Positions 2,736-36,745 of a DNA stretch of 36,793 nucleotides are shown piece after piece. Position numbers and translations under genes: made by a program. Location: assembly GCA_020627425.1 (NCBI GenBank), contig JAHKXX010000101.1, positions 1 to 36,793 on the forward strand, read 5' to 3'. The notes beneath the pieces are model-generated. The model had not been told where the DNA came from, made no database searches, and was given only the letters and a program-made list of their open reading frames with translations. Origin of the DNA: a bacterium (GTDB taxonomy: Bacteria > Bacillota > Clostridia > Oscillospirales > Acutalibacteraceae). How positions within the stretch are numbered: position 1 is the first letter of the stretch; each line of letters opens with the position of its first letter.

Positions 2736-2766
2736 CAGCGCTAAGCGGCACCATGCCGCTACCACT
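2736..2766 (+). repeat. intergenic structured repeat, orphan fragment R0 (H1-type hairpin only)
   Basis: CAGCGCTAA + AGCGGCA-cca-TGCCGCT (2744-2760) matches the CAGCGCTAA-GCGGCxC start of hairpin H1 in R3/R11, but the rest of the unit is missing. Confidence 0.6.
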
Positions 2767-2784
2767 ACGAGTATTATTTTAACA

Positions 2785-2963
2785 GGACACACCAAGCAGA
2801 ATAGAGAAATGTACCTGCCTTAACTTCAATGCAGCACAAGCGGCACCCTGTGTGCCGCGACGCGGACAAAGATGGACAATAAACCCAGCCTGTACGCGTG
2901 CCAATTTAGTAGGCGGCAACACCAACTACAGTGCGCGAATTGCCACCGGCGGCTCGCCGGTGC
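2785..2963 (+). repeat. intergenic structured repeat R1 (short unit: linker+H1+core+H2), P-ward orientation on +
   Basis: Linker GGACACACCAAGCAGAATAGAGAAATGTACC. H1 GCGGCAC-cctgt-GTGCCGC (2840-2858). Core GCGGACAAAGATGGACAATAAACCCAGCCTGTACGCGTGCCAA ... ACAGTGCGCGAATTG. H2 CACCGGCG-gct-CGCCGGTG (2944-2962). TTGACG follows at 2964. Confidence 0.85.
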
Positions 2964-2993
2964 TTGACGGGGGTAGGCACGCTGCTTTATAAT
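2964..2993 (+). promoter_or_regulatory. sigma-A-type promoter abutting R1, drives the thioesterase-recD2-comF operon
   Basis: TTGACG (2964-2969), 18-nt G-rich spacer GGGGTAGGCACGCTGCTT, TATAAT (2988-2993); 45 nt upstream of the ATG at 3039. Confidence 0.7.
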
Positions 2994-3038
2994 TATATCA
3001 GTAAATTTGATTATAATCAAGATAAGGGAGAGAGCAAA

Positions 3039-3434: not shown

Positions 3435-3473
3435 AAAATGCTGTGTGTATAGTTGATCAATAGTGGTGAGATA

Positions 3474-5675: not shown

Positions 5676-6361
5676 CTGAATCTATGAACAGGCTTACAGA
5701 AACCGTATTATCATTTATTATGCCAAGCCGCTGTCCCTTTTGCGGAAAAAGGATAGCCTACGACGAGAGCGAGTGCAGCAATTGCCGCTCGTTTTTTCCG
5801 AAGGACATAAAAAGAAAGGCGCTCCCGACAGGCGAAGAATGCTTTTATCCGTTCTACTACGAGAGCAGGTACAAGGACGCTATGCTTGCTCTGAAGTTCA
5901 AGGGTATGCGATACTATGCCGTCAGCTTTGCAAAGGCTATGACAGGATGTGCAAAAAGAGCCTATGGTGAATATCATATAGATATGATAACCTATGTGCC
6001 TATGTCGGGAAAAAAGAAGCTGCTGCGCGGATACAACCAGTCAAAGCTTCTTGCCGACATTATCGCCCGTGAGCTTTCGGTACCCTGTTGCAGTACACTA
6101 TACAAAAACCCGAAAACTCCCGAACAGCACAAGCTATCAAAGGAAGAGCGGGAGCAAAACGTCCGCGGCGCTTTCTCTCTGAAATACAGCGGTTCTCTTG
6201 ACGGCAAAGTCGTTTTACTTATTGACGACATTATCACCACCGGAAACACCCTATCCGAATGCACTCGTTTACTCCGCTGCGCCGGCGCCCACCCCCTTCC
6301 CCTCTGCGCCACGGGCAGCGCCGGCGGAGTGCCTCCGCAGTCGATTCGCGCCGGCGAGTGA
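5672..6361 (+). CDS. comFC: ComF family protein (phosphoribosyltransferase-like, competence ComFC type)
   Basis: ATGA start/stop overlap with recD2. N-terminal Cys4 finger CPFCG...CSNCR and PRTase motif VLLIDDIITTGNTL. The last ~15-25 codons run into repeat R2 (see findings). Confidence 0.85.
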   Translation: MTESMNRLTETVLSFIMPSRCPFCGKRIAYDESECSNCRSFFPKDIKRKALPTGEECFYPFYYESRYKDAMLALKFKGMRYYAVSFAKAMTGCAKRAYGEYHIDMITYVPMSGKKKLLRGYNQSKLLADIIARELSVPCCSTLYKNPKTPEQHKLSKEEREQNVRGAFSLKYSGSLDGKVVLLIDDIITTGNTLSECTRLLRCAGAHPLPLCATGSAGGVPPQSIRAGE

Positions 6362-6500
6362 GTGTTACCGCATACCTTGTTGGCACGCGGTCGGGTTGGT
6401 CTTATTATACCTCTCAGTCCGCGCCGTGCCGTACAGGACGGCACTTGACGCTGCTATAAAGTGACGGCGAGTATATTTGTCTATTCTGTTTATTGTCTCC
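6315..6500 (-). repeat. intergenic structured repeat R2 (short unit, tail-less arm of dimer R2/R3), P-ward on -
   Basis: + strand reads GCGGAG-tgc-CTCCGC (6324-6338), AGTCGATTCGCGCC, TTGGCACGCGG, CTTATTATACCTCTCAGTCCGCG, H1 GTGCCGT-acagg-ACGGCAC (6426-6444), then linker ...GTCTATTCTGTTTATTGTCTCC ending at 6500. Overlaps the comF 3' end. Confidence 0.85.
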
Positions 6501-6836
6501 GACTTTTAAAATTTACTGAAGACTGAAAACTTAAAACTGAATATTTAAAAATGATAGTCAGAAACTCACATTATACTCGCTGTACTGTTTTTCGGAGACA
6601 ATGAGCAGAGTAGAAAAGTATACTCGCCTCCACAATAAACCAGCGCTAAGCGGCGCGTAAGCGCCGTGACACGGACAAAAAGGTATAATAAACCCGGCTC
6701 GTACGCGTGCCAAAAAAGTCGGCGATAAAAACAACTACAGTGCGCGTGTTGACCGCGCAGGCACTGCGCCGCGTGCCAAGAAGGTAAGCGGTAACATAAA
6801 CCACAGTGCGCGAGTCGACAGCCCGGGCACCGGGCA
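6501..6836 (+). repeat. intergenic structured repeat R3 (full unit with AT-rich tail; internal module duplication), P-ward on +
   Basis: Tail GACTTTTAAAATTTACTGAAGAC...CTCACATTATACTCGCTGTACTGTTTTTC, linker GGAGACAATGAGCAGAGTAGAAAAGTATACTCGCC. H1 CGGCGC-gtaa-GCGCCG (6651-6666). Core ...AATAAACCCGGCTCGTACGCGTGCCAA...ACAGTGCGCG (6705-6746), repeated at 6771-6812. H2 hairpins GCGCAG-gca-CTGCGC (6755-6769) and GCCCGG-gca-CCGGGC (6821-6835). Confidence 0.9.
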
Positions 6837-6843
6837 TTTTTTT
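6821..6843 (+). terminator. intrinsic-terminator-like hairpin forming the last H2 of R3 (likely end of the recD2-comF transcript and/or of a repeat transcript)
   Basis: GCCCGG-gca-CCGGGC followed by A + T7 (6837-6843). Confidence 0.5.
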
Positions 6844-6852
6844 GGAATAATG

Positions 6853-6881: not shown

Positions 6882-6924
6882 AGTAGTTGACTCATATAGG
6901 TCATATATTTAAGGAGGGATATAT

Positions 6925-7880: not shown

Positions 7881-7887
7881 ATTTATT

Positions 7888-11410: not shown

Positions 11411-11439
11411 ATTTTACACCTCCCCCCTCCCCCTGTCAA
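11411..11439 (-). promoter_or_regulatory. sigma-A-type promoter abutting R4, drives citrate synthase
   Basis: Reverse strand: TTGACA (11434-11439), 17-nt spacer GGGGGAGGGGGGAGGTG, TAAAAT (11411-11416). Confidence 0.7.
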
Positions 11440-11712
11440 GCAGCGTGCCCGGCGCGTGCTCGCGCTGAGCAATTCGCGCACTGTAGTTGGTTGTGTCCTC
11501 CACTTTGTTGGCACGCGTACGAGCCGGGTTTATTGTCCCTCTCCGTCCGCGTCACGGCGCTCAGGGCGCCGCTCGTGCTGGTTTGGAGTGGCGGCAAGTA
11601 TATTTTCTACTCTACTTATTGTCTCCAAAAAACAATACAGCGAGTGTGATGTGAGTCTCTCACACTCATTATTCTTTTTTCTTTATTCTCTATTCTTTAT
11701 TCTTCTATTCTG
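11440..11712 (-). repeat. intergenic structured repeat R4 (full solo unit), P-ward on -
   Basis: + strand: GCGCG-tgct-CGCGC, TGAGCAATTCGCGCACTGT, TTGGCACGCGTACGAGCCGGGTTTATTGTCCCTCTCCGTCCGC, H1 CGGCGC-tcagg-GCGCCG (11555-11571), linker ...TTATTGTCTCC (to 11626), tail A6-CAATACAGCGAGTGTGATGTGAGTCTCTCAC plus TATTCT-rich run up to the yitJ stop at 11713. Confidence 0.9.
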
Positions 11713-15252: not shown

Positions 15253-15286
15253 GATTGCACTTCCTTATTCGGTCGGTTTGTTTTTC

Positions 15287-15547
15287 TCAGCGTATTTCAA
15301 CAATAAGCTTCATAGCGGTGCGCTCGGCTCCGTCTATTTCTATGCTGGTGAATGCAGGTATACATACAAGATCTATTCCCATCGGTGCAAGGTAGCCTCT
15401 GGCTACTGCAATAGATTTGAGTGCCTGATTGGTGGCTCCGGCGCCTACTGCCTGAACCTCTACACAGCCGTAATCTCTTATAACGCCTGCAATAGCTCCC
15501 GCAACCGAATTTGGTGATGATTTAGACGACACCTTTAAAATCTCCAT
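15287..15547 (-). CDS. spoVS: stage V sporulation protein S
   Basis: 86 aa MEILKVSSKSSPNSVAGAIAGVIRDYG...IPAFTSIEIDGAERTAMKLIVEIR, near-colinear with Bacillus SpoVS; lies downstream of ymdB as in Bacillus. Confidence 0.9.
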   Translation of the reverse strand: MEILKVSSKSSPNSVAGAIAGVIRDYGCVEVQAVGAGATNQALKSIAVARGYLAPMGIDLVCIPAFTSIEIDGAERTAMKLIVEIR

Positions 15548-15744
15548 TTTTATTATCCCCCTGAAAACTCTTAGAATTTAATGATATACGGGCTTCAATA
15601 ATTATACCGCCTACTGTAACTCTGTTCTCTCGTTCGCAAAACAAAATAGAATTACAGAATTATTTACACGCCCTATAATATAATATATGCAAAATGAATA
15701 TTATGCAAGCGATTTGTGTATAATTTTTTGTAAATTGAAAAAAA

Positions 15745-16560: not shown

Positions 16561-16589
16561 ATTTTAATACATTCCCCCCACTCTGTCAA
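16561..16589 (-). promoter_or_regulatory. sigma-A-type promoter abutting R5, drives ymdB
   Basis: Reverse strand: TTGACA (16584-16589), 17-nt spacer GAGTGGGGGGAATGTAT, TAAAAT (16561-16566). Confidence 0.7.
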
Positions 16590-16775
16590 CCCGGTGCCCG
16601 GGCGGCGCGTGCTCGCGCTGAGCAATTCGCGCTCTCGAATTGGTGTTGCCGCCGACTTTATTGGCACGCGGTCAAGCCTGGTTTATTATACCTCTCCGTC
16701 CGCGTCACGGCGCTTACGCGCCGCTCGTGCTGCATCGTTATGCAGGCAAATGTGTTTGTCTATTCTATTTGGTGT
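16590..16775 (-). repeat. intergenic structured repeat R5 (short unit), P-ward on -
   Basis: + strand: CCCGG-tgc-CCGGG (16590-16602), GCGCG-tgct-CGCGC, TGAGCAATTCGCGC, TTGGCACGCGG, GGTTTATTATACCTCTCCGTCCGCG, H1 CGGCGC-ttac-GCGCCG (16708-16723), GCTCGTGCTG, degenerate linker ...TTTGTCTATTCTATTTGGTGTAAC. Confidence 0.9.
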
Positions 16776-16869
16776 AACTGATTATTGTTTATATAATATA
16801 CAGTCAGTATACTATTTTATAACACTACTAATAGTATATTTATAACCGAAAGTAATATCTTGTAGACAA

Positions 16870-16915
16870 CAAAAAACACATCACCGTCATGATGATGTGT
16901 TTTGTACTTTTTATT
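16870..16915 (-). terminator. rho-independent terminator (bidirectional in form) downstream of the yabE-like gene and R6
   Basis: ACACATCA-ccgtcatga-TGATGTGT (16876-16900), flanked by A6 on the left (T6 on the reverse strand) and a T-rich run on the right. Confidence 0.7.
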
Positions 16916-16929
16916 TTGTTGGATCATTC

Positions 16930-17095
16930 AGCAGAAAAGCCAAATGAACTTGTCATTACTCCAAACCAGCACGAGCGGCACCCTGAGTGCCGCGACGCGG
17001 ACTGAGAGGTACAATAAACCCAACTCGACCGCGTGCCAACAAAGCGGGCGGTAACACACACCCGAGTGCGCGAATTGCTCAGCGCGAGCACGCGC
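16930..17095 (+). repeat. intergenic structured repeat R6 (short unit), P-ward on +, ends exactly at the yabE-like stop codon
   Basis: ...CTCCAAACCAGCACGA, H1 GCGGCAC-cctga-GTGCCGC (16975-16993), GACGCGGACTGAGAGGTACAATAAACCCAACTCGACCGCGTGCCAACAAAG...GAGTGCGCGAATTGCTCA, H2 GCGCG-agca-CGCGC ending at 17095. TTA (reverse-strand stop) at 17096-17098. Confidence 0.9.
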
Positions 17096-18358
17096 TTAGT
17101 TGTAGGTTGCGCTTTCGGGAACACCGCTGAGGACGTATATTGTAACGTCACGTCTGCCGAATACGCAGCACTCGTCAAGAGTGTCATAGTACAGGTCAAC
17201 GATAGCGGTACCTTCCCATAATGCTCCGCCTGTGTCACCTGCTACGGCATAACCGTAAACTACCTGTCCGTCGTTTGATACTATATAAAGTATTGAACCG
17301 TAGGGGATGATGTCGGGGTCAACGGCTACAACACCATAACGTGCTGCTCTGCCTGTTGCGGTAAGAGGATGCTCCTCCTCTGAATAATATGCTGTACCCG
17401 AACCTGTGAGTACCTGTGTGTAATCTACTGTGTTTCCGTTGGGATCTGTAAGAGTCTTTTCTGTCTCGTTGACGGTTATTGCTCCGCTGGAGGTTGAGAA
17501 ACGGTTTACTCTTTCCTTGGTTCCTACCAGTACTACCTCGTTTACAGGCTCCTTTACGACCTCGCTGCTAAGCTTTTTGCTTTCAACGACCTTGCCGTTT
17601 ACTATCTTGTCATTGGTTACTATCTTGCGCTCGCCCTCGACGCCGCTTCTTATTACTTTTCTCTCGCCGTCGTACAGTTCGTCGCTTGACTGTGTCTCTG
17701 TCTTGTAGCCTATCTTTTCTATCTTTGTGTTTTTCTTATAGGTCGTGTTCTCAATCTTTATCTCGAGTCCGTTTTCAACCTTCTGGTTACCATTTGTTAA
17801 AAGCTTGTCGTTCTTATTAAGCTCTATATCAAGATACTTAAGAGCCTGCTGAACTGTACCCTCGGGTACTTCCTTGCTGTATATCTTGCCTCTGAGATTT
17901 ACCTTTACAGTGTAAAAACGCTTTATGGTTATCTCTGAGCTTTCCGAGCCGCCGGATGCTTTCTCGGACAGTGAAGCGGAATCATTCTGGCTGAGTGTCA
18001 TTCCTGCTGCCTTGAGAGCGTCAGCTACAGTTCCTTCATCAAATGTAATAAATCTGCTTTCTTTGCCGTCCATTGAAAACGCACGCATTATAGAAATGTT
18101 TACGTTGTTAGCCTCGGCATCGGTGCGTACAAGCTTGTCGTTGCTGCCAAGCTCGACTCCTGCGCGTACAAGTATAGCGTCAGTGTCGGAATTCATAGTG
18201 TTGATAGTCATTGTCTTTTCGCCGTCTGTTACTGTAACGGTTTTTGATAACGCCGTAACCGAGAACGCAGCCGTAAGGCATATAGTACCCATAAGCGCAA
18301 CCGAAACTGCTTTTTGAAGTCCCTTATAGCGATTGTTGTTTTGACCGTTCATAATCAA
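17096..18358 (-). CDS. yabE: YabE-like cell-wall protein (DUF348 repeats + G5 domain + 3D/RlpA-like domain)
   Basis: 420 aa; signal/anchor helix; G5-like middle region; C-terminal 3D domain (TATGRAARYGVVAVDPDIIPYGS...AGDTGGAL...VDLYY). Canonical promoter at 18418-18446. Confidence 0.8.
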   Translation of the reverse strand: MIMNGQNNNRYKGLQKAVSVALMGTICLTAAFSVTALSKTVTVTDGEKTMTINTMNSDTDAILVRAGVELGSNDKLVRTDAEANNVNISIMRAFSMDGKESRFITFDEGTVADALKAAGMTLSQNDSASLSEKASGGSESSEITIKRFYTVKVNLRGKIYSKEVPEGTVQQALKYLDIELNKNDKLLTNGNQKVENGLEIKIENTTYKKNTKIEKIGYKTETQSSDELYDGERKVIRSGVEGERKIVTNDKIVNGKVVESKKLSSEVVKEPVNEVVLVGTKERVNRFSTSSGAITVNETEKTLTDPNGNTVDYTQVLTGSGTAYYSEEEHPLTATGRAARYGVVAVDPDIIPYGSILYIVSNDGQVVYGYAVAGDTGGALWEGTAIVDLYYDTLDECCVFGRRDVTIYVLSGVPESATYN

Positions 18359-21243: not shown

Positions 21244-21272
21244 ATTATACCCCATAATCCCCCCTATTTCAA
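21244..21272 (-). promoter_or_regulatory. sigma-A-type promoter abutting R7, drives tatD-SDR-thyX-like
   Basis: Reverse strand: TTGAAA (21267-21272), 17-nt spacer TAGGGGGGATTATGGGG, TATAAT (21244-21249). Confidence 0.7.
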
Positions 21273-21530
21273 GCGGCGGAGTGCCTCCGCGGTCAATTCA
21301 CGCACTCTGGTTGGTGTTACCCCTACCTTATCAGCACGCGTACGAGTTTGGTTTATTGTACCTCTACATCCGCACCACAGCGCATAGAGCGCTGCTTGTG
21401 CTGGTTGGGAGTGAAGATTAAAATGCTTTCTACTCTATTCAATTTCCCCAAAAAACAGTACGGTGAGTATGATGTGAGTTTCTCACAATTGTTAATTTTT
21501 AAGTTTTAAGGTTTCCGTCTTCAGTAAACA
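21273..21530 (-). repeat. intergenic structured repeat R7 (full solo unit), P-ward on -
   Basis: + strand: GCGGAG-tgc-CTCCGC, GGTCAATTCACGCACTCT, ATCAGCACGCGTACGAGTTTGGTTTATTGTACCTCTACATCCGC, H1 CAGCGC-ataga-GCGCTG (21378-21394), linker ...CTACTCTATTCAATTTCCCC, tail A6-CAGTACGGTGAGTATGATGTGAGTTTCTCAC...GTCTTCAGTAAA. Fills the whole gap between the PLC-like stop (21543) and the tatD promoter. Confidence 0.9.
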
Positions 21531-22476: not shown

Positions 22477-24888
22477 TCACTCTATTATTTTTAGTTTTGC
22501 GGAAGACGCCATAAGCTTCTTTGTTCCTGCACTGTCAAAGGCGACCTCTACAAGACAGTCCGACGCCATCGGTCTGGTACTCAGAACAATGCCCGAGCCG
22601 AAGGAGTTGTGTTCTACCCTCATTCCTACGCTGTAATTCGTTTTGCTGCCGGCAGCAGCGTTTGTACCTATTACCTTGCTCTGCGCTATATCGTGACGGC
22701 GCAGATCTCTTTGACGGGGGATATAAACGCTTTTGTCTGTTTTTATTTCTCTGTGCTTTTTCTCTATGTTCTCCTGCGGCAGCTCTCTGAGAAAGCGCGA
22801 GGGTATGTTTCTTGTTGTATGACCGAACAGCATACGGCTCTCGGAATTAATAAAATAAAGCTCTCGCTTTGCCCTTGTTATACCGACATATGCAAGCCGT
22901 CTTTCCTCCTGCATATCCTCGTCGCTGTTTTTGGCTCCGAAGCCCGGGAAGATATTTTCCTCCATACCGGGTATAAACACGCACGGAAACTCCAGTCCCT
23001 TTGCGGAGTGCAGAGTCATAAGCACTACTTTGCCGCTGTCCTCTTCGTCGCTATAGGTATCAATATCCGTCATAAGGGCAGCCTCCTCAAGAAAGCCCTG
23101 TATAGACGCGTCGTCGCCGTTTTCCTGCTCGTACTGTATGATACTTGATTTAAGCTCTTGTATATTCTCTACGGCTGTGTCGCCGTGGTCGCTCTCGTGC
23201 ATTATAAAGCTTTCGTACTGAGTACGACTAAGCAGCTCGTCATACACCTCTGACAGCGGCATATCATCAAGCATATCCGTCAGCTCTTCTATCATCCTGT
23301 AAAAGCCCATCAGCTTGTCGCGGCTTCTTGACAGAGCCTCGAACTCGTCCGACTGTGTAATGGTCTCATACATACTCTGTCCGAGAGTGTTGCTTATTTC
23401 CTCCAGCTGACCGATAGTCCTGTCGCCGATACCGCGCTTTGGTACGTTTATTATTCTTTTCAGTCTGCTATTGTCGTGATGATTGCTGATAAGGTTCAGA
23501 TATGCCATCATATCGCGTATTTCTCTGCGCTCATAAAACCTGTGACCGCCGATTATCCTGTACGGCACGGCGTTTCTCACCAGTGCGCGCTCTATGGACT
23601 GCGACTGGGAGTTCATACGGTAAAGCACGGAATAATCAGAGTAGCTGCCGCCGTTTTTTACGCCTTCGGTGATGGTGTTTATTATAAACCTGCTCTCGTC
23701 GTTTTCGTCGCTTGCGGTGTACCATACTATGCTGTTACCCTGATCGTTGCCTGTCCAGAGCGTTTTTGATTTTCGGAGAGAGTTGTTTTTTATAACGGCG
23801 TTTGCCGCGTCAAGTATCGTTTTTGTAGAGCGGTAATTCTGCTCTAACTTTACCGTTCTTGCGTCCTCATAGTCCTTCTCAAATTCCAGTATATTGCGGA
23901 CGGTGGCGCCTCTGAATTTATATATGCTCTGGTCGTCGTCGCCCACAACGCAGATATTCCTGTATTTATCGGCAAGCAGTCTGACAAGCTCATACTGAAG
24001 AAGATTTGTATCCTGATACTCGTCAACCATAATATATTTAAACTGTTCCTGATAATGCTCTAAAATATCAGGACAGGTCTTAAACAGCACAACGGTATTA
24101 AAGATTATATCGTCAAAGTCCATAGCGTCGGCTTTCAGCAGTCGGTGCTGATAATTGTCATATATATTGGAAATGGTTTTCAGTCTTGCGTCTGTACCGG
24201 CGGCGGTTTTAAAAAGCCCGGGGTCTGTCATCTCGTCCTTTGCGTGAGATATAGCGGACATAACCGATCTTATCGGCATCATTTTTTCGTCGATCCTCAG
24301 CCCCTTCATAATATCCTTTATAAGGCGCTTCTGATCGTCCGTATCGTATATTGTAAAATGATTTGTATAGCCTATTCTGTCTCCGTATCTTCTCAGTATC
24401 CTTGCACAGCTTGAATGAAACGTAGACGCCCATATATCGTTGCCTATATCGCCAACCTTTGCACATATACGGCTTTTAAGCTCGTTTGCAGCCTTATTTG
24501 TAAAGGTTATGGCAAGTATTCTCCACGGGTACACCCGTGATACGGACAGTCTGTCTGCTATCTCGTCAGGCAGTCTCTCATCGGTTTCTGCGGATCTTTT
24601 TATTATTTCTGTTTCTTCATCGGAAAATTCGCCGTACACGGTGTCACTTTCGTAAGCCTCGCCCCAGCGCAGTATATTTGCTATCCTGTTTACAAGCACA
24701 GTCGTTTTTCCGCTTCCTGCTCCTGCGAGTATCTGAAGCGGTCCTCTCGTCGTAAGCGTTGCTGCTCTTTGCATATCGTTAAGTGAAGAAAATTCTTTTT
24801 CTATTATTCTTTTCCTCAGTCTGATCAATTCTTCTTTTTCGGTCAATCCTATTCGTCCTTCCTTTTTAGGATAAGCACTCCCCTTCAT
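22477..24888 (-). CDS. pcrA: ATP-dependent DNA helicase PcrA/UvrD (SF1)
   Basis: AGAGSGKTT, VDEYQDTN, TLHSAKGLEF and VGITRAK motifs. Track ORF (to 25014) is trimmed because its first 42 codons lie in the promoter and repeat R8. ATG at 24888 has no SD; the alternative TTG at 24846 follows AGGAAGG and may be the true start. Confidence 0.9.
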   Translation of the reverse strand: MKGSAYPKKEGRIGLTEKEELIRLRKRIIEKEFSSLNDMQRAATLTTRGPLQILAGAGSGKTTVLVNRIANILRWGEAYESDTVYGEFSDEETEIIKRSAETDERLPDEIADRLSVSRVYPWRILAITFTNKAANELKSRICAKVGDIGNDIWASTFHSSCARILRRYGDRIGYTNHFTIYDTDDQKRLIKDIMKGLRIDEKMMPIRSVMSAISHAKDEMTDPGLFKTAAGTDARLKTISNIYDNYQHRLLKADAMDFDDIIFNTVVLFKTCPDILEHYQEQFKYIMVDEYQDTNLLQYELVRLLADKYRNICVVGDDDQSIYKFRGATVRNILEFEKDYEDARTVKLEQNYRSTKTILDAANAVIKNNSLRKSKTLWTGNDQGNSIVWYTASDENDESRFIINTITEGVKNGGSYSDYSVLYRMNSQSQSIERALVRNAVPYRIIGGHRFYERREIRDMMAYLNLISNHHDNSRLKRIINVPKRGIGDRTIGQLEEISNTLGQSMYETITQSDEFEALSRSRDKLMGFYRMIEELTDMLDDMPLSEVYDELLSRTQYESFIMHESDHGDTAVENIQELKSSIIQYEQENGDDASIQGFLEEAALMTDIDTYSDEEDSGKVVLMTLHSAKGLEFPCVFIPGMEENIFPGFGAKNSDEDMQEERRLAYVGITRAKRELYFINSESRMLFGHTTRNIPSRFLRELPQENIEKKHREIKTDKSVYIPRQRDLRRHDIAQSKVIGTNAAAGSKTNYSVGMRVEHNSFGSGIVLSTRPMASDCLVEVAFDSAGTKKLMASSAKLKIIE

Positions 24889-24910: not shown

Positions 24911-24940
24911 ATTATACCACACCCTCCACCCAAAAAACAA
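24911..24940 (-). promoter_or_regulatory. sigma-A-type promoter abutting R8, drives pcrA (weak -35)
   Basis: Reverse strand: TTGTTT (24935-24940), 18-nt spacer TTTGGGTGGAGGGTGTGG, TATAAT (24911-24916). Confidence 0.55.
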
Positions 24941-25142
24941 CCCGGTGCCCGGGCGGCGTGCCTCCGGCGCGTGCTCGCGCTGAGCAATTCGCGCACTCTG
25001 ATTGATGTTACCACCTACCTATCGGCACGCGTACGAGTGGGGTTTATTGTCCCTCTCCGTCCGCGCCGTGCCGCACAGGGCGGCACTTGACGCTGCTTTA
25101 GAGTGGAGGCGAGTGTGTTTGTCTATTTTATTTATCGTCTCC
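24941..25142 (-). repeat. intergenic structured repeat R8 (short unit, tail-less arm of dimer R8/R9), P-ward on -
   Basis: + strand: CCCGG-tgc-CCGGG (24941-24953), GCGCG-tgct-CGCGC, TGAGCAATTCGCGCACTCT, ATCGGCACGCGTACGAGTGGGGTTTATTGTCCCTCTCCGTCCGCG, H1 GTGCCGC-acagg-GCGGCAC (25068-25086), linker ...TTTGTCTATTTTATTTATCGTCTCC ending at 25142. Confidence 0.9.
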
Positions 25143-25450
25143 GTTTTTAAAAAATACTGAAGACTTAAGACTGAAAACTGAAAAATGAATAATGATTGTG
25201 TGAACTCACATCATACTTGCCGTATTGCCTTTTTGGAGACAATAAGTAAAATAGAGAAATATACCAGCCTTCACTATTAAGCAGCACGAGCGCCGCCCTG
25301 AGCGGCGTGACGCGGAAAAAGAGGTAGAATAAACCAAGCTTGAGACGTTGCTCTGTAGTAGGCGGTAACAATAATTTGCCACGCTGCGGCGTGCCGTGCA
25401 CGCCCTTGCCGCCGTGCGGCAAGAGAGAGTTGACAGCACAGGCACTGTGT
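25143..25450 (+). repeat. intergenic structured repeat R9 (full unit, B subfamily), P-ward on +
   Basis: Tail GTTTTTAAAAAATACTGAAGAC...CTCACATCATACTTGCCGTATTGCCTTTTT, linker GGAGACAATAAGTAAAATAGAGAAATATACC. H1 CGCCGC-cctga-GCGGCG (25291-25307). Diverged core; extra hairpins GGCGTGC-cgt-GCACGCC (25388-25404) and CTTGCCGC-cgt-GCGGCAAG (25405-25423); TTGACA; H2 CACAG-gca-CTGTG (25437-25449). Confidence 0.85.
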
Positions 25451-25451: not shown

Positions 25452-25480
25452 TTGTTTTTTTTGAAAATGTGTGATATTAT
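25452..25480 (+). promoter_or_regulatory. extended -10 promoter for the response regulator/kinase/htrA operon
   Basis: TTGTTT (25452-25457), 17-nt spacer, TGaTATTAT (TG at 25472-25473, TATTAT at 25475-25480). The TTGACA inside R9 (25430-25435) has no -10 partner. Confidence 0.5.
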
Positions 25481-27774: not shown

Positions 27775-29256
27775 ATGCCTGACAACAGATTTACAGACGA
27801 CTCAAACAATCCGATACCGCAGAGCAGAGACAATATCTACAGCGGCTCGTACAACATCGACCCTTACGGTACAGCAAACAACGGTTCAAACGGATACAAC
27901 CCTTACAATAACAGAGGCTATAGCAGAATGGATCGCGGCGAGCTTTCCCGTCAGGTTGACGAGCGATACAACAGCATAAACGGCAACCAATACTATGCGG
28001 ACTACAATAATTACGGGTACAATTACAGTGTAAGTCCCCTGCCGCCCGAGCCTCCGAAAAAGAAGCACACCGGGCTGAAGGCTTTTGTGATCTCGTTTTT
28101 GTGCGTACTGCTTGCCGTTGTAATAGGTCTTTCGGTTTTACTTATATACAACATAGGAACAACCGACACAAAACCCAAAAAGTCAAAGGATGAGTCCTAC
28201 GACTACAATTCCGACACAAGCTACAGCACAGAGACCTCGTTCACAAGCGCACCCGAAGCAAGTGCAAATCTTAACGGTCCACAGGTAAGCATATCGGAGT
28301 CAAACGGCGATGATGAAGTATCCGATGAAGTGAACGGAGCATATCTGAAGGTATCAAAAAGTATAGTATGCATAACCTCCTATGAAGCCGGAACGGATTT
28401 TACCGTGACCGGGAACGGCGAAGGCTCCGGAATAGTAATAACCTCAGACGGCTATATAGCCACCAACAGCCATGTAGTCAACGACTCGACCACGACCGGT
28501 GTTATGATAACGCTGAACGACGGTTCGCAGTATCTGGGCACGATAATCGGCATAGACAAAAAAACAGACCTTGCGGTAATAAAGATAGACGCAAAGGATC
28601 TGTCTCCGGCAGAGTTTTCCGACTCCGACAAGCTATATGTCGGACAGCCTGCCTATGCTATCGGAAACCCCGGCGGCTCGGCTTTTTCCAATTCTCTTAC
28701 CACCGGCAGTATATCGGCTCTGAACAGGATATTATCCACAAACGGCTATGTAAAGTACATACAGACAGACGCCGCCATAAACCCCGGCAACTCCGGCGGC
28801 GCGCTCATTGACAAATACGGCAGCGTAGTAGGTATGAACACCGCAAAGCTGGTGGCTACGGACTACGAGAGTATGGGCTTTGCAATACCGAGCAACACTG
28901 TTGTATCCATAGTAAACAAGCTGATAAAATACGGCTATGTAAACGACAGGGGTACTCTCGGTATAGAAGGCGCTACCTCTACTCTGTACAATGCAAAAAT
29001 GAATGGTGTTCCCCAGGGTATGATACTGACAAAAATCGAAAGCTACAGCCCTCTCGCGAAAACCAACGTCAGAGAGCAGGACATCATCACTATGATCAAC
29101 GGAACAACCATAACCAATGTTAACGAATTTACCGACATCCTGAAGGACTACAAGCCCGGTGACAGTGTTACCCTTACGCTCTTCCGTCCCTCCTCCCGCA
29201 GCATCTCTGAAACTTTCAGCTACAACGTCACCGTAAAACTGATCCCCGACCGCTAG
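27775..29256 (+). CDS. HtrA/DegP-family S1C serine protease with PDZ domain, membrane-anchored
   Basis: AGGAGG RBS. N/Y-rich cytoplasmic head, one TM helix, catalytic TNSHVV ... D ... GNSGGAL, C-terminal PDZ-like region. Confidence 0.85.
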   Translation: MPDNRFTDDSNNPIPQSRDNIYSGSYNIDPYGTANNGSNGYNPYNNRGYSRMDRGELSRQVDERYNSINGNQYYADYNNYGYNYSVSPLPPEPPKKKHTGLKAFVISFLCVLLAVVIGLSVLLIYNIGTTDTKPKKSKDESYDYNSDTSYSTETSFTSAPEASANLNGPQVSISESNGDDEVSDEVNGAYLKVSKSIVCITSYEAGTDFTVTGNGEGSGIVITSDGYIATNSHVVNDSTTTGVMITLNDGSQYLGTIIGIDKKTDLAVIKIDAKDLSPAEFSDSDKLYVGQPAYAIGNPGGSAFSNSLTTGSISALNRILSTNGYVKYIQTDAAINPGNSGGALIDKYGSVVGMNTAKLVATDYESMGFAIPSNTVVSIVNKLIKYGYVNDRGTLGIEGATSTLYNAKMNGVPQGMILTKIESYSPLAKTNVREQDIITMINGTTITNVNEFTDILKDYKPGDSVTLTLFRPSSRSISETFSYNVTVKLIPDR

Positions 29257-29430
29257 GCGCTGTGCCTGCGCTGTCAATTCGCGCAATGTAGCTTTTGTTA
29301 CCACCTACTTTTTTGGCACGCGGTCAAGCTTGGTCTATTGTCCCTCTCCGTCCGCGTCACGGCGCTTACGCGCCGCTCGTGCTGGTTTGGAGTGGAGGAC
29401 GGTATATTTGTCTGTTCTGTTTTGTAGACC
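29257..29430 (-). repeat. intergenic structured repeat R10 (short unit, tail-less arm of dimer R10/R11), P-ward on -, begins directly after the htrA stop
   Basis: TAG at 29254-29256, then + strand GCGCTG-tgc-CTGCGC (one mismatch), TGTCAATTCGCGCAATGT, TTGGCACGCGGTCAAGCTTGGTCTATTGTCCCTCTCCGTCCGCG, H1 CGGCGC-ttac-GCGCCG (29360-29375), GCTCGTGCTGGTTTGGAGTGG, linker ...TTTGTCTGTTCTGTTTTGTAGACC. Confidence 0.9.
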
Positions 29431-29742
29431 GACTTTAATAATTTACTGAAGACTGAAGACTTAAGACTGAAAAATGAATAATGATAGTGAAAATCTCACC
29501 TCAGACTTGCTGTACTGTTTTTTTGGAGACAATGAGTAGAGCAGACAAACACACTTGCCTCCTCTCCAAACCAGCGCTAAGCGGCACTTTGTGTGCCGTG
29601 ACGCGGACGGTATCGTACAATAAACCCAACTTGAGACGGTGCTCTGAAGTCGGCGGTAACAAGTACCAGCCACGCTCCGGCGTGCCGTGCACGCCCTTGT
29701 CGCCGTGCGGCAAGAGAGAGTCGACAGCGGCGGCACGCCGCC
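29431..29742 (+). repeat. intergenic structured repeat R11 (full unit, B subfamily), P-ward on +
   Basis: Tail GACTTTAATAATTTACTGAAGAC...CTCACCTCAGACTTGCTGTACTGTTTTTTT, linker GGAGACAATGAGTAGAGCAGACAAAC. H1 CGGCAC-tttgt-GTGCCG (29582-29598). Core GCGGACGGTATCGTACAATAAACCCAACTTGAGACGGTGCTC. Extra hairpins 29679-29695 and 29696-29714. TCGACA; H2 GCGGCG-gca-CGCCGC (29727-29741). Confidence 0.9.
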
Positions 29743-29771
29743 TTGACAGGGGGATGGGAGAGAGGTATAAT
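29743..29771 (+). promoter_or_regulatory. sigma-A-type promoter abutting R11, drives the YkuD-like gene
   Basis: TTGACA (29743-29748), 17-nt spacer GGGGGATGGGAGAGAGG, TATAAT (29766-29771). Confidence 0.75.
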
Positions 29772-31640: not shown

Positions 31641-31644
31641 ATAT

Positions 31645-32664: not shown

Positions 32665-32703
32665 ATCCTCTTTTACTCATCTCCTCATACAGCGCTGACC
32701 TTA

Positions 32704-35700: not shown

Positions 35701-36483
35701 GTAAAGTCTGAGGGCATCCTCTATAGCCTCGGTGATCGCTGCTTTTTCTATTTCTATTTTTTCAAGTCTTGTAAGGAAGGTGGTATGACGGCAGTGATCG
35801 GACCAATAGGTATCTATAACGCGCAGCTCTGTAACGGTCGGATCGCGGTGTTCCGTATCGCGGAAGTAGTCGCGGCAGAACTCAAGGTCTGACAGCGTCA
35901 TGGCAAAGCCCATAGAGCCATAGTATTTTTTCATTTCCTCGTCGTTCCATTTTATAAAGCCCGAGACCTTTGCTACATCAGCCGGTACCTCGGTAACAAG
36001 CTCCAGCGATTCGGGTTTTTCAAGAGACGCTTCCCTTGACTCAACGGGGTTTATAAGGTAATGCTGTATTTTTTTAAAATCGTTATCGTCTATATTGCCC
36101 TTTATTGCTATTACCTTTGCACTTTTTACTGTAGGTATCTCGCCCTGCGTCAGCAGCTGCACGCACTGTGCAGCCGAGTCCGCTCTCTGGTCGTACTGAC
36201 CCGGAAGGTACTCTACTGCGAATACTCTATAAGCTGCATCCTCGGGCAGCTTTTCATCATAGACCATATCGGCATTTGTTTCGCTGAGTATGGTATTTTT
36301 TGCCCTTTCAAAGCTTTCATCATCAAGTCCGCTTATATCGTATCTGTTGATTATCCTGACATTCTCTATACCCGTAAGTCCCAAGGTATTTACAAGGTCA
36401 GCCGAAAGATTTTGCGCCTCTACGTCAAAGCCGGGGCGTTTCTCTACAAAAATTCTTTTTACAGCGTCCATTTTATCCACCAT
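32704..36483 (-). CDS. purL: phosphoribosylformylglycinamidine synthase, single-chain large PurL (FGAM synthase with fused glutaminase)
   Basis: 1259 aa. AIR-synthase-like repeats; C-terminal class-I glutamine amidotransferase with GICNGFQAL and HGEGR. Start may be the Met at 36471 (GGTGGA RBS). Confidence 0.92.
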   Translation of the reverse strand: MVDKMDAVKRIFVEKRPGFDVEAQNLSADLVNTLGLTGIENVRIINRYDISGLDDESFERAKNTILSETNADMVYDEKLPEDAAYRVFAVEYLPGQYDQRADSAAQCVQLLTQGEIPTVKSAKVIAIKGNIDDNDFKKIQHYLINPVESREASLEKPESLELVTEVPADVAKVSGFIKWNDEEMKKYYGSMGFAMTLSDLEFCRDYFRDTEHRDPTVTELRVIDTYWSDHCRHTTFLTRLEKIEIEKAAITEAIEDALRLYYESRDEIYGKDSSRDVSLMDMALVGMKLLKKRGMIPDLDQSDEINACSIEVPVTIDGKTEQWLVQFKNETHNHPTEIEPFGGAATCLGGAIRDPLSGRAYVYQAMRVTGSGDPTVPFEKTMEGKLPSRKITTGAAQGYSSYGNQIGLATGQVTELYDPGYVAKRLEIGAVIGASPKENVVRGVPAPGDIIVLLGGRTGRDGCGGATGSSKAHTTESIETCGAEVQKGNPPTERKIQRLFRNKDVSTLIKRCNDFGAGGVCVAIGELADGLTVDLDKVTKKYDGLDGTELAISESQERMAVVLEQKDVDRFIKEADKENLEATAVAVVTESPRLTMNWRGNTIVDLSREFLNTNGVTQTASAFIASPDENDCYREKAPSELSGMDISDAFRENMSRLQVCSQKGLCERFDSSIGAATVLMPFGGVTQLTPEEAMAAKIPLLEGETDDATAMAYGYIPGISKWSPFHGAAYAVVESLSKLLAIGADPLCARLTFQEYFERLHDVPSRWGKPAAALLGSLTAQIKLGLPSIGGKDSMSGSFEELDVPPTLVSFAVAMTKASKTVSAEFKKSGSTVYYVPVPEDKKSKLPDYEALKNMYRAVYCLMKDGKVLAASTVKEGGAAAAVAKMSFGNRIGFRFKNELSFDELFAPLSGSLILELKDGAKMPKDILYYELGSTTDDEKITVNGAELSIDELIEKWTGTLEKVFPTKAPCPENKIETPLYTQRNTASPMIKTAVPKVFIPVFPGTNCEVDTARAFRKAGADPRLLIVRNLTPAAIEETIEKMTEMINESQMIMLPGGFSGGDEPDGSGKFIATTFRNPRVAEAVNTLLQKRDGLMLGICNGFQALIKLGLVPYGEIRELKETDPTLTFNTIGRHISKMAYTRITSVKSPWLSGVNPGDVFSVPISHGEGRFAANDEVIKTLSENGQIATQYVDPNGNVADSIDYNPNGSVCAIEGITSPDGRVLGKMGHSERKGEDLYFNVPFEKDQRIFESGVAYFK

Positions 36484-36537
36484 TCCTTAATTGTTCATTA
36501 AATCACTGTCTGTATTTATCGCCTCTGCGACACCCTA

Positions 36538-36567
36538 ATTATACCCCCGGCGTGCCGCCCCTGTCAA
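36538..36567 (-). promoter_or_regulatory. sigma-A-type promoter abutting R12, drives purL(-mreB)
   Basis: Reverse strand: TTGACA (36562-36567), 18-nt spacer GGGGCGGCACGCCGGGGG, TATAAT (36538-36543). Confidence 0.7.
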
Positions 36568-36745
36568 GCGGAGTGCCTCCGCGGTCGATTCGCGCACTCG
36601 AATTGGTAGTATCCCTACCTTGTGGCACGCGTACGAGCGGGGTTTATTGTCCCTCTCCGTCCGCGCCGTGCCGCACAGGGCGGCACTTGTCGCTGCTTTG
36701 ATGTGAGAATAAGTGTATTTGTCTTTTCCGCTTGGTGTATCACAC
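36568..36745 (-). repeat. intergenic structured repeat R12 (short unit as far as visible), P-ward on -
   Basis: + strand: GCGGAG-tgc-CTCCGC (36568-36582), GGTCGATTCGCGCACTCG, GTGGCACGCGTACGAGCGGGGTTTATTGTCCCTCTCCGTCCGCG, H1 GTGCCGC-acagg-GCGGCAC (36668-36686), degenerate linker ...GTATTTGTCTTTTCCGCTTGGTGTATCAC. Confidence 0.9.

Follow-up and report, generated by a model that had tools for sequence, protein, structure and literature searches.

The intergenic regions of the 36,793-nt stretch analysed here (the window), which belongs to an uncultured Acutalibacteraceae/"Ruminococcus" lineage of the gut and rumen, harbour an undescribed family of short repeats, and about half of the gaps between the housekeeping genes of the window are built from its modules. 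The reading that we prefer, and to which we give about an even chance of being right, is that of a lineage-restricted, non-coding, non-autonomous and modular mosaic family that carries predicted promoters and recombines between its copies. The sequence base of the analysis comprises these 36.8 kb and about 40 kb from close relatives.

The repeat family and its architecture

A core of about 180 nt is present in 12 copies and one half copy, spread over eight intergenic gaps longer than 100 nt, which is the number of occupied gaps originally proposed. All 12 copies were recovered, at about the coordinates and on the strands of the original prediction, by a repeat search, MAFFT alignment, nhmmer (E 6e-52 to 2e-73) and a covariance model (72-149 bits). 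The worry that alignments made by eye would fail under nhmmer has thus been dispelled, and the dense, hairpin-bearing intergenic family with subfamilies that had been called is real. Moreover, a 23-base exact pattern from the near-invariant block has eight matches in the window, whereas none is expected (100 shuffles). The units are short (175-340 nt) and the copies are 70-90% identical; their reading frames are not alike, so the family is non-coding. Coverage by self-BLAST amounts to 2,609 nt (7.1% of the window) and density to about one copy per 3 kb, from which, together with the contigs that break inside copies, any genome-wide copy number would be an extrapolation.

Each core is made up of a linker, the hairpin H1, the invariant block CGGA-N7-G-N-A-N-AATA-N-AC, a CGCGTGC/GTGCGCG stem and the motif GAATTGAC. 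An island combines an optional central spacer, one or two cores, one to three H2 hairpins with a GCA triloop and, where a gene start is faced, a predicted sigma-A promoter, and it takes up all of the gap between the stop codon upstream and the -35 hexamer downstream. The central spacer is either an AT-rich heptad tail or, in relatives, of a GC-rich type. Whole cores form inverted pairs around at least three types of spacer (the AT-rich tail, the GC-rich 'type G' and the R5/R6 spacer), namely R2/R3, R5/R6, R8/R9 and R10/R11 in the window and a fifth pair in one gap of the conspecific contig L001; the H2 ends point outward in all five, as the H2 end of a core always does. Each unit contains three to five occurrences of the motif GGCAC. 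A third of the copies are directed toward the 3' end of a gene, and R9 and R11 constitute a subfamily with a different 3' half and two extra hairpins.

The six-part anatomy first proposed holds in its layout and has to be amended in its details (Table 1). The fragment R0, given as 2736-2766, exists, its real extent by nhmmer being longer (about 2695-2766) and in tandem with R1. R3 contains an internal tandem duplication of its 3' module (6770-6832), and the AT-rich tail of about 90 nt is restricted to R3, R4 (as a variant), R7, R9 and R11. The promoter, of sigma-A type and directly 3' of the last H2 hairpin, is a seventh module that had been overlooked.

Table 1. Repeat copies and adjoining predicted promoter modules in the window
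Feature	Positions	Strand	Description	Basis or putative target
R0	2695..2766	+	5' half copy: linker and H1 GCGGCAC-CAT-GCCGC; tandem, upstream of R1	nhmmer 2695-2755, E 3e-6; sequence reading
R1	2767..2963	+	core: linker, H1, invariant block, outer stem/H3, H2 CACCGGC-GGCTC-GCCGGTG	nhmmer E 1.4e-57; covariance model 148.9 bits at 2828-2962
Promoter module after R1	2964..2993	+	TTGACG-18-TATAAT, G-rich spacer	would drive FlK-like thioesterase/recD2/comF-like operon (start ATG 3039)
R2	6318..6502	-	core; left arm of inverted pair with R3; H2 end overlaps 3' end of comF-like gene; flank/interior breakpoint versus L001	nhmmer E 6e-54; covariance model 122.7 bits
R3	6503..6842	+	heptad AT-rich tail 6503-6590, core 6591-6769, duplicated 3' module 6770-6820; end at 6821-6842 with hairpin GCCCGG-GCA-CCGGGC, then T-run	
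R4	11440..11712	-	variant GAATAAA-heptad tail 11609-11712, beginning at MTHFR stop codon, and core 11440-11608	nhmmer E 2e-73; covariance model 136.6 bits
Promoter module after R4	11411..11439	-	TTGACA-GGGGGAGGGGGGAGGTG-TAAAAT; 100% conserved in L001 although the core is swapped	putative, for citrate synthase
R5	16590..16790	-	core with two H2 hairpins, GCGCG-AGCA-CGCGC and CCCGG-GCA-CCGGG	nhmmer, covariance model
Promoter module after R5	16561..16589	-	TTGACA-17-TAAAAT; orthologous in L004/L005, where the core is replaced	putative, for ymdB
R6	16925..17098	+	core, inverted versus R5; H2 end adjoins stop codon of G5/3D-domain gene	repeat search, nhmmer, covariance model
R7	21273..21530	-	tail 21449-21530, beginning just past phospholipase C (PLPC) stop, and core 21273-21448	nhmmer, covariance model
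Promoter module after R7	21244..21272	-	TTGAAA-TAGGGGGGATTATGGGG-TATAAT; orthology to sister species L096 begins at -35 hexamer	putative, for tatD
R8	24941..25146	-	core of young 'type B' subfamily, three hairpins at H2 end	nhmmer, covariance model
Promoter module after R8	24911..24940	-	TTGTTT-18-TGGTATAAT, G-rich spacer; orthologous in L096	putative, for pcrA
R9	25147..25450	+	tail 25147-25231 and R9/R11-subfamily core; extra hairpins GGCGTGC-CGT-GCACGCC and CTTGCCG-CCGTG-CGGCAAG; H2 CACAG-GCA-CTGTG	nhmmer, covariance model
Promoter-like site after R9	25452..25480	+	TTGTTT-17-TATTAT, TG at -15/-14; T-rich spacer, also readable as T-run after hairpin	putative, for response-regulator operon
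R10	29255..29432	-	core; left arm of pair with R11; H2 end adjoins htrA-like protease stop codon	nhmmer, covariance model
R11	29433..29742	+	tail 29433-29522 and R9/R11-subfamily core	nhmmer, covariance model
Promoter module after R11	29743..29771	+	TTGACA-GGGGGATGGGAGAGAGG-TATAAT	putative, for YkuD-domain gene
R12	36568..36793	-	type B core and 5' extension; reaches window end	nhmmer, covariance model
Promoter module after R12	36538..36567	-	TTGACA-18-TATAAT; spacer holds GGCG-GCA-CGCC hairpin	putative, for purL

Hairpins and promoters

The hairpin covariation, like the family and its modules, is real. Compensatory changes occur both in H1 (19-21 nt), at five of the seven pairs, and in H2 (13-17 nt, perfect and preceded by GAATTGAC/GAGTCGAC), where 18 GCA triloops sit on at least seven different perfect stems; the outermost stems vary between ends and between copies. 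In an alignment that was not fitted to structure, pairing cells reached 83.2% against 75.2% in shuffles, and pairs changed on both sides numbered 12 against 6.3, a value attained by none of 500 shuffles, while the slid controls all remained far below what was observed. Pairing gives no account of the conservation of the invariant block. Wobble cells of the G-T kind exceed those of the A-C kind (49 against 12), which favours the strand called P-ward in the original prediction, that is the orientation pointing toward the adjacent promoter. Most of this excess can be traced to fixed wobble pairs, two in the outer stem and one in H1, and hence to few independent events. In 16 of 18 copies the P-ward strand gives the better fold of the H3 segment; the summed MFE is slightly in favour of the opposite strand, and the folding z-scores of whole cores lie at only -0.8 to -2.6 whichever strand is folded. 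The hairpins may act in the P-ward single strand, most likely RNA, and could serve as a boundary, stabiliser or insulator for the neighbouring transcription units, not as a diffusible RNA.

Wherever a copy faces a gene start, its H2 end meets the -35 hexamer of a sigma-A-type promoter, as seen in all 11 distinct gene contexts of the window and its relatives. Sites of the type TTGACA-17/18-TATAAT come directly after H2 in R1, R4, R5, R7, R11 and R12, R8 being alike by sequence, and the repeat-associated promoters lie 25-65 nt upstream of the start codons. A G-rich spacer is common to seven of the nine window promoters, whereas promoters free of repeats are without it (for example 18446-18418, with the spacer ATTCCGTTTAGTCGGAT). 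Given this constant abutment and the shared spacers, the 'promoter-carrying' element and the 'insulator-promoter cassette' were the best-fitting candidates among those first listed. Judged from their sequence, the promoter modules probably drive the adjacent housekeeping genes.

Turnover between strains and range of the family

Exchange of cores between loci takes place within the time over which strains diverge, and the promoters and flanks stay orthologous both in the conspecific contigs (97-98% identical overall) and in the sister species L096 (about 92%). In the conspecific L001, L004 and L005 the flanks are 97-100% identical and the cores replaced, with sharp breakpoints that lie within the element. 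At orthologous sites the cores are different copies, only 69-82% identical, whereas those at the non-orthologous sites L001a, L005a and R8 form a young subfamily of 92-95% identity; it follows that cores are exchanged between loci and mark rearrangement breakpoints. Orthology to L096 starts at the -35 hexamers, and a core can there be lost or inverted while its promoter persists; in one L096 gap a complete inverted core at one edge is matched by no more than an end of about 28 nt at the other. The breakpoints between strains are situated at the outermost H2 hairpins and also in the invariant block and linker, L005 and L096 show rearrangements with breakpoints in cores, and the copies coincide with synteny breakpoints; seven of nine related contigs start inside a copy. 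Every orthologous gap recovered (L001, L004, L005, L096) is occupied, so that no empty site was found, and neither a target-site duplication nor a donor-recipient pair was seen among the recovered loci. We infer that dispersed copies exchange cores by homologous recombination or gene conversion. Homologous recombination by itself does not account for the initial spread of the family into many gaps. The family had been described as old and maintained, without a recent burst. Its age is consistent with the distant relative described below; however, orthologous cores that differ between strains 97-98% identical, together with the 92-95% subfamily, indicate that exchange is ongoing.

The family had no match in 185,579 GTDB species representatives, JGI metagenomes and IMG/VR, nor among plasmids or phages, and nhmmer found none outside same-species contigs in about 1.36 Mb from some 80 nearest species and other relatives. 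A search of Rfam, as had been suggested, left the repeats of the window without a match both at gathering score and at E<=1, and those of L001, L005, L096 and L097 without one at E<=0.1. As had been claimed, transposases, integrases and reverse transcriptases are absent by Pfam from the 27 ORFs of the window, five of which have no Pfam match and four of these no NCBIfam match either; positions 1-1070 (minus strand) encode what we take, from reading of the translation alone, to be a Tex-like N-terminus. No mobility gene was found near the repeats in the window or in the fetched loci of relatives, including RAYT in both and TnpA or TnpB in the window.

The distribution among relatives is patchy. 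The MAG 'uncultured Ruminococcus sp. RUG14860' (locus L034) carries at least three copies in 11 kb of a related family, likewise undescribed as far as we found, of which only the 3' module can be aligned (covariance model 24 bits, E 4e-5). Its parts follow one another in the same order as in our family, with a long GGCAC hairpin first, then an A-rich stretch AATAATAGCC, some 45 nt, CAGCGCGAATTGAC and the hairpin CCGGCG-GCA-CGCCGG, and its orientation upstream of ymdB and the next gene is also the same. In RUG14860, however, the hairpin is a 22-bp palindrome and the promoters are without the G-rich spacer and about 70 nt further off. This relative suggests that the layout is old.

Comparison with known repeat systems

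In its general character the family belongs with BIME/REPIN, Correia and BOX elements and putative mobile promoters. It falls outside the definitions of REP and Correia elements and probably outside that of MITEs. BOX elements of Streptococcus pneumoniae are intergenic modules of a Firmicutes host (boxA-boxB(n)-boxC) with variable module number and a predicted fold. This variability parallels the one to three H2 units seen here, but no sequence similarity is known, and to our knowledge no sigma-A promoter module has been reported and no cassette swapping described for BOX. Correia elements, as generally defined, measure 100-155 bp, have terminal inverted repeats of 26 bp and a TA duplication, contain an IHF site and are known only from Neisseria. 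The present repeats differ in length, ends and host (Clostridia), with no such inverted repeats on the single core and no known duplication or sequence similarity. They are nonetheless like Correia and ERIC in being dense intergenic repeats that supply outward-facing putative promoters; those elements bear outward promoters for neighbour genes and account for a few percent of a genome (PMC3575422, citing Siddique et al. 2011).

MITEs are short (under ~500 bp), non-coding and multicopy, and the present units share these traits. The original MITE candidate was not supported, since single cores have no terminal inverted repeats, their 5' (GGAGACAAT.. or ACACCAAG..) and 3' (GAATTGAC plus H2) ends being dissimilar, and no target-site duplication was demonstrable. 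Whole islands do have inverted ends (the four window pairs and the 28-nt ends in L096), and R4 and R7 have the tail at one end. A REP is an imperfect palindrome of 30-40 nt that has a conserved GTAG on its 5' side and must contain a mismatch in its stem (PMC3333891); the repeats contain no such palindrome, GTAG occurring only inside the weak H3 stem, and the REP candidate was abandoned. According to PMC3333891, PMC2817692 and PMC3116915, REP/BIME are high-copy extragenic GC-rich hairpins, mosaic with linkers, and rearrangement hot spots. The RAYT-associated REP/BIME/REPIN elements of E. coli and Pseudomonas thus share with our family the high-copy GC-rich extragenic hairpins, the compensatory changes, the mosaic of hairpin and linker, the frequent inverted pairs, the rearrangement hot spots and the placement at gene ends. 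Unlike in REP, the hairpins here are 13-21 nt long, mostly perfect and placed after GAATTGAC, the repeated unit is a core of about 180 nt with a long non-palindromic invariant block, and the family carries predicted promoters; the inverted pairing is about five times larger in scale than in BIME. An IS200/IS605-derived palindrome element, in which subterminal hairpins are strand-specific and keep one orientation relative to replication, was also rejected, as copies lie on both strands (five plus, seven minus) within 36.8 kb and TnpA/TnpB are absent from the window.

Putative mobile promoters are sequences of at least 50 nt and at least 80% identity upstream of unrelated genes in one genome, an operational definition under which most families are pairs (PMC3575422; Matus-Garcia, Nijveen and van Passel 2012). 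R4 (citrate synthase) and R5 (ymdB) are 85% identical, and R8 (pcrA) and R12 (purL) 87-88%, which places them in this class; R9 and R11 share 86% over 122 nt. Unlike the mobile-promoter families, ours is large and modular, with hairpins and with copies also at gene 3' ends.

Alternative explanations

The repeats might instead be a non-autonomous element that transposes, or undergoes site-specific recombination, through a trans-acting enzyme whose gene lies elsewhere in the genome (RAYT/Y1 HUH, IS110-type or another recombinase), which we find possible although rather doubtful. Such an enzyme would recognise the GAATTGAC/GAGTCGAC motif and the GCA-triloop hairpin at the outward ends, and the ancestral unit would be an inverted core pair around a spacer, single cores being deletion products. 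The conserved loop on variable stems after a conserved 8-mer does resemble a recognition hairpin, and the strain breakpoints at the outermost H2 hairpins, the five gaps with outward-facing inverted pairs, the resemblance of the L096 gap to terminal inverted repeats, the same 3' module in the distant RUG14860 family and the patchy distribution would all agree with it. However, the window and all fetched loci are free of such a gene, target-site duplications and empty sites were not seen among the recovered loci, and the outermost stems are not alike between ends or copies. Moreover, the occurrence of copies on both strands in 36.8 kb argues against the strand-specific IS200/IS605 mode, and the breakpoints in the invariant block and linker are those that homologous recombination predicts. 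A more speculative idea, which we regard as quite unlikely, is that the GCA-triloop hairpins and the GAATTGAC leader are recombination sites of an undescribed system moving regulatory cassettes (core with or without spacer) between intergenic sites. If true, it would be integron-like for promoter-upstream DNA, or a scaled-up REPIN, and would explain the hairpin-bounded replacements between conspecific strains as well as the patchy end module in a distant genus-level relative.

Each core could also be a small-RNA gene or a cis-acting RNA, the multicopy structured RNA of the original prediction, which we consider unlikely. Its transcript would run either P-ward, with H1 or a -10-like TAnAAT box at the 5' end and H2 as terminator, or on the opposite strand, starting at TTGGCA-17-TATTGT and passing H1 before it reaches the T-rich tail. 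The hairpin covariation, the G-U-dependent stem on the P-ward strand and the much better P-ward fold of the RUG14860 relative (z -5.1 versus -2.7) speak for an RNA, as do a T-run after H2 in R3, R8, R9 and, by sequence, L001b, and a correctly spaced -35/-10 pair on the opposite strand in seven window copies. Nevertheless no well-conserved promoter for it was found: the opposite strand of the invariant block reads TTGGCA-17-TATTGT in half of the copies (TTG of the -35 in only 9 of 18 in the alignment), the P-ward -10-like box is without a -35 and starts with G in 7 of 18, and the promoter-like linker site GAGACA-N17-TATACT is not conserved. Most copies have no terminator, the whole-core z-scores are weak and there is no Rfam relative; cores are, in addition, freely truncated, inverted and replaced beside the same conserved promoter, which is unexpected for a needed RNA. 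We judge it very unlikely that the invariant block and/or the GGCAC/GTGCC motifs form a platform to which a global regulator or a nucleoid protein binds, so that the repeats would be operators of a regulon that duplication has spread. The conservation of the block beyond pairing, the recurrence of GGCAC and the constant position upstream of promoters would suit a platform, but how far the block lies from the -35 depends on how many H2 hairpins are present, a third of the copies are at gene 3' ends, cores can be lost or inverted with the promoter kept, and the compensatory changes in the stems indicate a folded single strand rather than duplex recognition. An assembly artefact, with collapsed or chimeric repeats, deserves next to no credence: the window is a MAG-type contig and conspecific contigs often break inside copies, but independent assemblies reproduce the copies (L006 shows 100% identity along 4,971 nt, and three gaps with repeats are bridged by L001), and copies 70-90% identical can be resolved by short reads.

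Significance

Promoter-bearing Correia, ERIC and REPIN elements and mobile promoters have already been described (PMC3575422); such repeat families are little described in Firmicutes. The repeats break short-read assemblies and coincide with synteny breakpoints, which matters for MAG binning and comparative genomics, and a search for a binding protein or an enzyme could start from the conserved GCA-triloop hairpin and from the invariant block. Should the promoter modules prove active, members of one repeat family would drive the transcription of a large part of the lineage's housekeeping genes, in the window for instance of purL, pcrA, tatD, ymdB and citrate synthase. The DNA just upstream of these predicted promoters is rewritten between strains that are 97-98% identical, and the family offers a natural system for how interspersed repeats seed, carry and reshuffle regulatory DNA in Firmicutes.

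Reality and gene setting of the repeat family

The intergenic repeat family put forward in the original prediction is real. A repeat search of the window found direct and inverted families of 50-190 nt, 60-87% identical, which link all the predicted intervals, and in a MAFFT alignment the 12 intervals were collinear across ~170 nt. The nhmmer profile built from this alignment recovered each copy (R1 to R12) at E values of 6e-52 to 2e-73, together with two further partial matches, one a duplication internal to R3 and the other the half copy R0. Moreover, a 23-base pattern of the near-invariant block occurred eight times, against none expected in 100 shuffles. Self-similar DNA makes up 7.1% of the window, and the density is about one copy per 3 kb, or 7-8% of the DNA. 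The anatomy first described holds with some corrections: R0 is half a copy, comprising 72 nt of the 5' side, only five copies have the AT-rich tail, R9 and R11 form a subfamily with a different 3' half, and a promoter module had been overlooked.

The surrounding genes are the housekeeping set of a spore-forming Clostridia lineage (recD2, comF-like, citrate synthase, metH/MTHFR, fakA, spoVS, ymdB, tatD and pcrA, as well as a two-component system, htrA, sigG, mreB and purL); judged from translation alone, the gene at the left end is probably tex. As predicted, no transposase, integrase or reverse transcriptase family was matched among the 27 ORFs of the window. One apparent gap holds the 86-aa spoVS gene, which lies below the 100-aa ORF cut-off and is called in all related contigs, and is thus not empty intergenic DNA.

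Positions of features in the window and in related contigs
Feature	Sequence	Positions (strand)
R0, partial profile match	window	2695-2755
Duplication internal to R3, partial profile match	window	6770-6832
Tail units	window	6503-6560, 25147-25200, 29433-29490, 21480-21530
Tail units, variant	window	11640-11712
Type B block of R8	window	~25040-25075 (-)
Repeat-encoded 3' end of comF-like gene	window	6318-6361
Repeat-encoded 3' end of PLPC gene	L096	3822-3862
Gap holding spoVS	window	15253-15744
Palindrome in R5-R6 spacer	window	16873-16903
Promoter of a repeat-free gap	window	18446
RF03531 match within pcrA	window	22838-22943 (-)
RF03531 match	L096	2468-2561
Type G central spacer	L001	10080-10190
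Type G central spacer	L097	1290-1430
Second repeat family	L034	1-116, 3283-3440, 6422-6526
Unrelated repeat family	L045	2277-2513, 7906-7972, 8496-8674, 13972-14171

Anatomy and folding of the core

Covariation was assessed in a MAFFT alignment of 18 cores made without regard to structure. Here the proposed pairs were standard in 83.2% of cases, compared with 75.2% after shuffling. Changes on both sides were seen in 12 pairs, a number that none of 500 shuffles reached, the shuffles giving 6.3; when the partners were slid by 1-3 columns pairing fell to 17-59%. The hairpin H1 carries compensatory changes in five of its seven pairs; its stem comes in four types and its loop in several forms, GTAA among them. 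H2 is a perfect 5-7-bp stem on a GCA triloop, and 18 such hairpins stand on at least seven different stems, each preceded by GAATTGAC, GAATCGAC or GAGTCGAC. The outer stem, which pairs CGCGTGC with GTGCGCG through two G-T pairs, is conserved and hardly varies, so that it is uninformative for covariation, and the stem of the third hairpin, H3, is weak.

The folded form appears to be the single strand of the P-ward orientation, that is, the one pointing at the adjacent promoter. This is suggested by an excess of G-T over A-C cells (49 vs 12), by the H3 segment, which folds better P-ward in 16 of the 18 copies, and by a distant relative in the MAG RUG14860 (z -5.1 P-ward vs -2.7), although these rest on few independent events. 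Whole cores have no unusual stability on either strand (z -0.8 to -2.6); RNAalifold recovers H1 and one short stem only, with neither strand clearly favoured by total energy. Pairing does not account for the conservation of the invariant block, CGGA-N7-G-N-A-N-AATA-N-AC.

In the tail a 7-nt unit (ACTGAAG/ACTTAAA; in R4 GAATAAA) occurs five to six times in tandem, and the conserved CTCACATCATACTCGCTGTACTG-T6-GGAGACAAT comes after it. Between two diverging cores the tail can be replaced by a GC-rich "type G" central spacer with its own hairpins (AACCCCTCAGTCACG..CGCCGTGCCAGCT.CCC..GGGGAGCC..GCCTCCC..GGGGAGG), found in two related contigs and absent from the window.

Several readings of these parts were rejected. 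The copies do not code for protein: the anti-P strand, opposite to the P-ward one, frequently carries open frames longer than 100 codons, yet the frames differ between copies, and one anti-P ORF, compared with 5.8 billion proteins, matched a single spurious ORF, which led to the related contig L097. A small peptide in the tail was discarded on the same ground, its frames differing among R3, R9 and R11. The combination of a P-ward hairpin and T-run expected of a terminator occurs only in R3, R8 and R9, and the poorly conserved hairpin next to the tail is separated from its T-run by 9-17 nt. Readings of the invariant block as a sporulation-sigma or sigma-54 promoter were dismissed by eye on spacing and key bases against the published consensus; the sigma factor encoded in the window is SigG. 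In the core subfamily called type B (among others R8, and the cores L001a, L001b and L005a of relatives) the block reads TAAA-N16-GCCGATA(G/A) and resembles a sigma-D/FliA-type promoter, whereas most other copies have GCCAAnAA in place of GCCGATA(G/A). The corresponding reading, TAAA-N16-GCCGATAG, fits type B copies only and the likeness is probably a coincidence.

Promoters, gene ends and islands

Nine window genes have a copy at their start (the FlK-like operon, GNAT, citrate synthase, ymdB, tatD, pcrA, the response regulator, ykuD and purL). In seven of them the H2 end lies 0-2 nt from the -35 hexamer, while at R3 the promoter begins ~17 nt past the hairpin; with two genes in relatives, the H2 end faces the promoter in 11 of 11 contexts. 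A G-rich spacer and an AGGG-type start are common to seven of the nine promoters, as in TTGACA-GGGGGAGGGGGGAGGTG-TAAAAT and TTGACA-GGGGGATGGGAGAGAGG-TATAAT, whereas the promoters of repeat-free gaps are without the G-rich spacer (for example TTGACA-ATTCCGTTTAGTCGGAT-TATAAT). The predicted promoters lie 25-65 nt upstream of the start codons.

At gene 3' ends the H2 end runs up to the stop codon or into it, both in the window (the comF-like gene, the G5 gene and htrA) and in relatives (in L096 the phospholipase C gene PLPC, in L005 the acetolactate synthase small subunit and in L097 a gene of 693 aa). For two of them, the comF-like gene and PLPC, the element provides the last ~10-14 codons and the stop; as these codons vary between strains or species, the element rewrites protein C-termini. 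An island, the repeat assembly filling one gap, thus spans the entire distance between stop codon and -35 hexamer, and its middle is taken up by a tail, by a GC-rich spacer or by two diverging cores with their 5' ends. On a neutral reading of this outward placement of H2, internal deletions alone would be tolerated, both outer ends touching functional sequence. The spacer between R5 and R6 contains a 13-bp palindrome, AAAACACATCATCATGACGGTGATGTGTTTT, with A and T runs on either side in the shape of a bidirectional terminator.

Turnover between strains and loci

Genes and flanks are 97-100% identical to those of the related contigs L001, L004 and L005, but the interiors of the elements differ. 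In the comF-GNAT gap ~480 nt between the two outermost hairpins have been replaced, including the central spacer; upstream of citrate synthase the tail and promoter are identical and the ~190-nt core is of another subtype; upstream of ymdB orthology begins at the last hairpin and promoter. In the sister species (L096) orthology sets in at the -35 hexamers upstream of tatD and pcrA. There the tatD gap holds an inverted core and a 30-nt remnant in place of tail and core, and the pcrA gap a chimeric core joined to the spacer that lies upstream of ymdB in the window; the displacement of this R5-R6 spacer marks a rearrangement. Contig L005 is also rearranged past MTHFR, with the breakpoint within the invariant block. 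The copies are therefore substrates for chromosomal rearrangement.

Cores at the same site are only 69-82% identical (R4/L001a 82, R5/L005a 77, R3/L001b 75 and R2/L001c 69), whereas the type B cores L001a, L005a and R8, at three different sites, share 92-95%. Cores thus move or convert between loci faster than strains diverge, and the description of the family as old, maintained and not recent was only partly right. The promoter modules have been stable since before the ~92% split from the sister lineage, and the distant relative in RUG14860 suggests an old layout.

Host range and relatives

Judged by YmdB and TatD, the window belongs with uncultured Acutalibacteraceae and "Ruminococcus sp. 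RUG" MAGs from rumen and gut, the closest GTDB species having a YmdB identity of only 73%. Exact and relaxed scans for the repeat pattern gave no match in GTDB species representatives, JGI metagenomes or IMG/VR; the host species is evidently absent from these collections, so that the scans yield no copy-number estimate. BLASTN of the repeat against plasmids and phages gave no match, nor did nhmmer find the family in ~1.36 Mb of DNA surrounding ymdB, taken from the 80 nearest species and from further relatives. Exact-protein look-ups with citrate synthase and the FlK-like protein were negative, probably owing to differing called start codons. The Rfam comparison suggested with the original prediction returned nothing on the repeats, at the gathering score or at E<=1. 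The one notable Rfam hit, unrelated to the repeats, is a sub-threshold match to RF03531 ("Clostridioides difficile sRNA included into helicase gene"), with 42.2 bits vs a gathering score of 65.2 and E 9e-4; it lies within pcrA and recurs in the sister species at 38.3 bits.

The family is present in same-species contigs of 97-98% DNA identity (L001, L002, L004, L005, which is GCA_045539455.1, L006 and L008), in the ~92% identical sister lineage and in L097. Seven of nine related contigs start within a copy, which is what a genome rich in copies would produce.

A core covariance model picked up the distant relative in the MAG of uncultured Ruminococcus sp. RUG14860 (L034; YmdB 67% identical), a second dense intergenic family with at least three copies in 11 kb. 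It shares with the window family the order of parts, an identical 3' module (CAGCGCGAATTGAC and CCGGCG-GCA-CGCCGG) and the orientation, both upstream of ymdB and ahead of the gene that follows. Its repeats contain a 22-bp palindrome with GGTGCC/GGCACC and the segment AATAATAGCC, and from one copy to another an A-T pair of the hairpin has become G-C, a compensatory change. Consequently the layout either predates the alignable sequence family or extends beyond it, and its distribution is patchy, several closer relatives being without it in the 20 kb examined. The MAG RUG10751 (L045) carries an unrelated intergenic family of 170-200 nt with hairpins AAGGGGCGGCAGCCCCTT and GAACTTTTTGAAAAAAGTTC, three to four copies in 14 kb, so that other members of the clade have repeat families of their own.

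Nature of the element

In the best-supported interpretation the family is an interspersed element of mosaic build, and recombination between copies both homogenises its cores and reshuffles them. Homologous recombination would be the mechanism of exchange; the breakpoints fall in stretches that the copies have in common, namely the linker, the invariant block and the H2 region. Neighbouring genes would be transcribed from the promoter modules, and the hairpins may be kept because a folded single strand, probably an RNA at the borders of transcription units, is under selection.

An enzyme-driven transposon or recombination site, with GAATTGAC and the GCA hairpin as its ends, could also move cores between loci and is possible though unlikely. 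That the copies are a multicopy small RNA is rather improbable: hairpin covariation is what such an RNA would leave, set beside the ordinary stability of whole cores. There is a slight chance that they form a protein-binding platform, to which the invariant block would be suited and the covarying stems less so. An assembly artefact could be imagined where contigs start within copies; with independent assemblies reproducing the copies, we regard this as highly improbable.

Among known families, the element works like the promoter-bearing interspersed repeats (Correia, ERIC, REPIN), and by the operational definition it qualifies as a putative mobile promoter (PMC3575422). A classical MITE seems unlikely, since a single core is without terminal inverted repeats and no duplication was seen, and the occurrence of copies on both strands sets the family apart from an IS200/IS605 derivative. 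It is neither a Correia element nor any Rfam family, nor a REP/BIME, which is defined by a GTAG-footed imperfect palindrome of 30-40 nt (PMC3333891) that these repeats do not have. As far as these tools can show the family is undescribed, and on present evidence it is not categorically new. Its interest lies in its density, its linkage to promoters and the turnover of its cassettes within a species.
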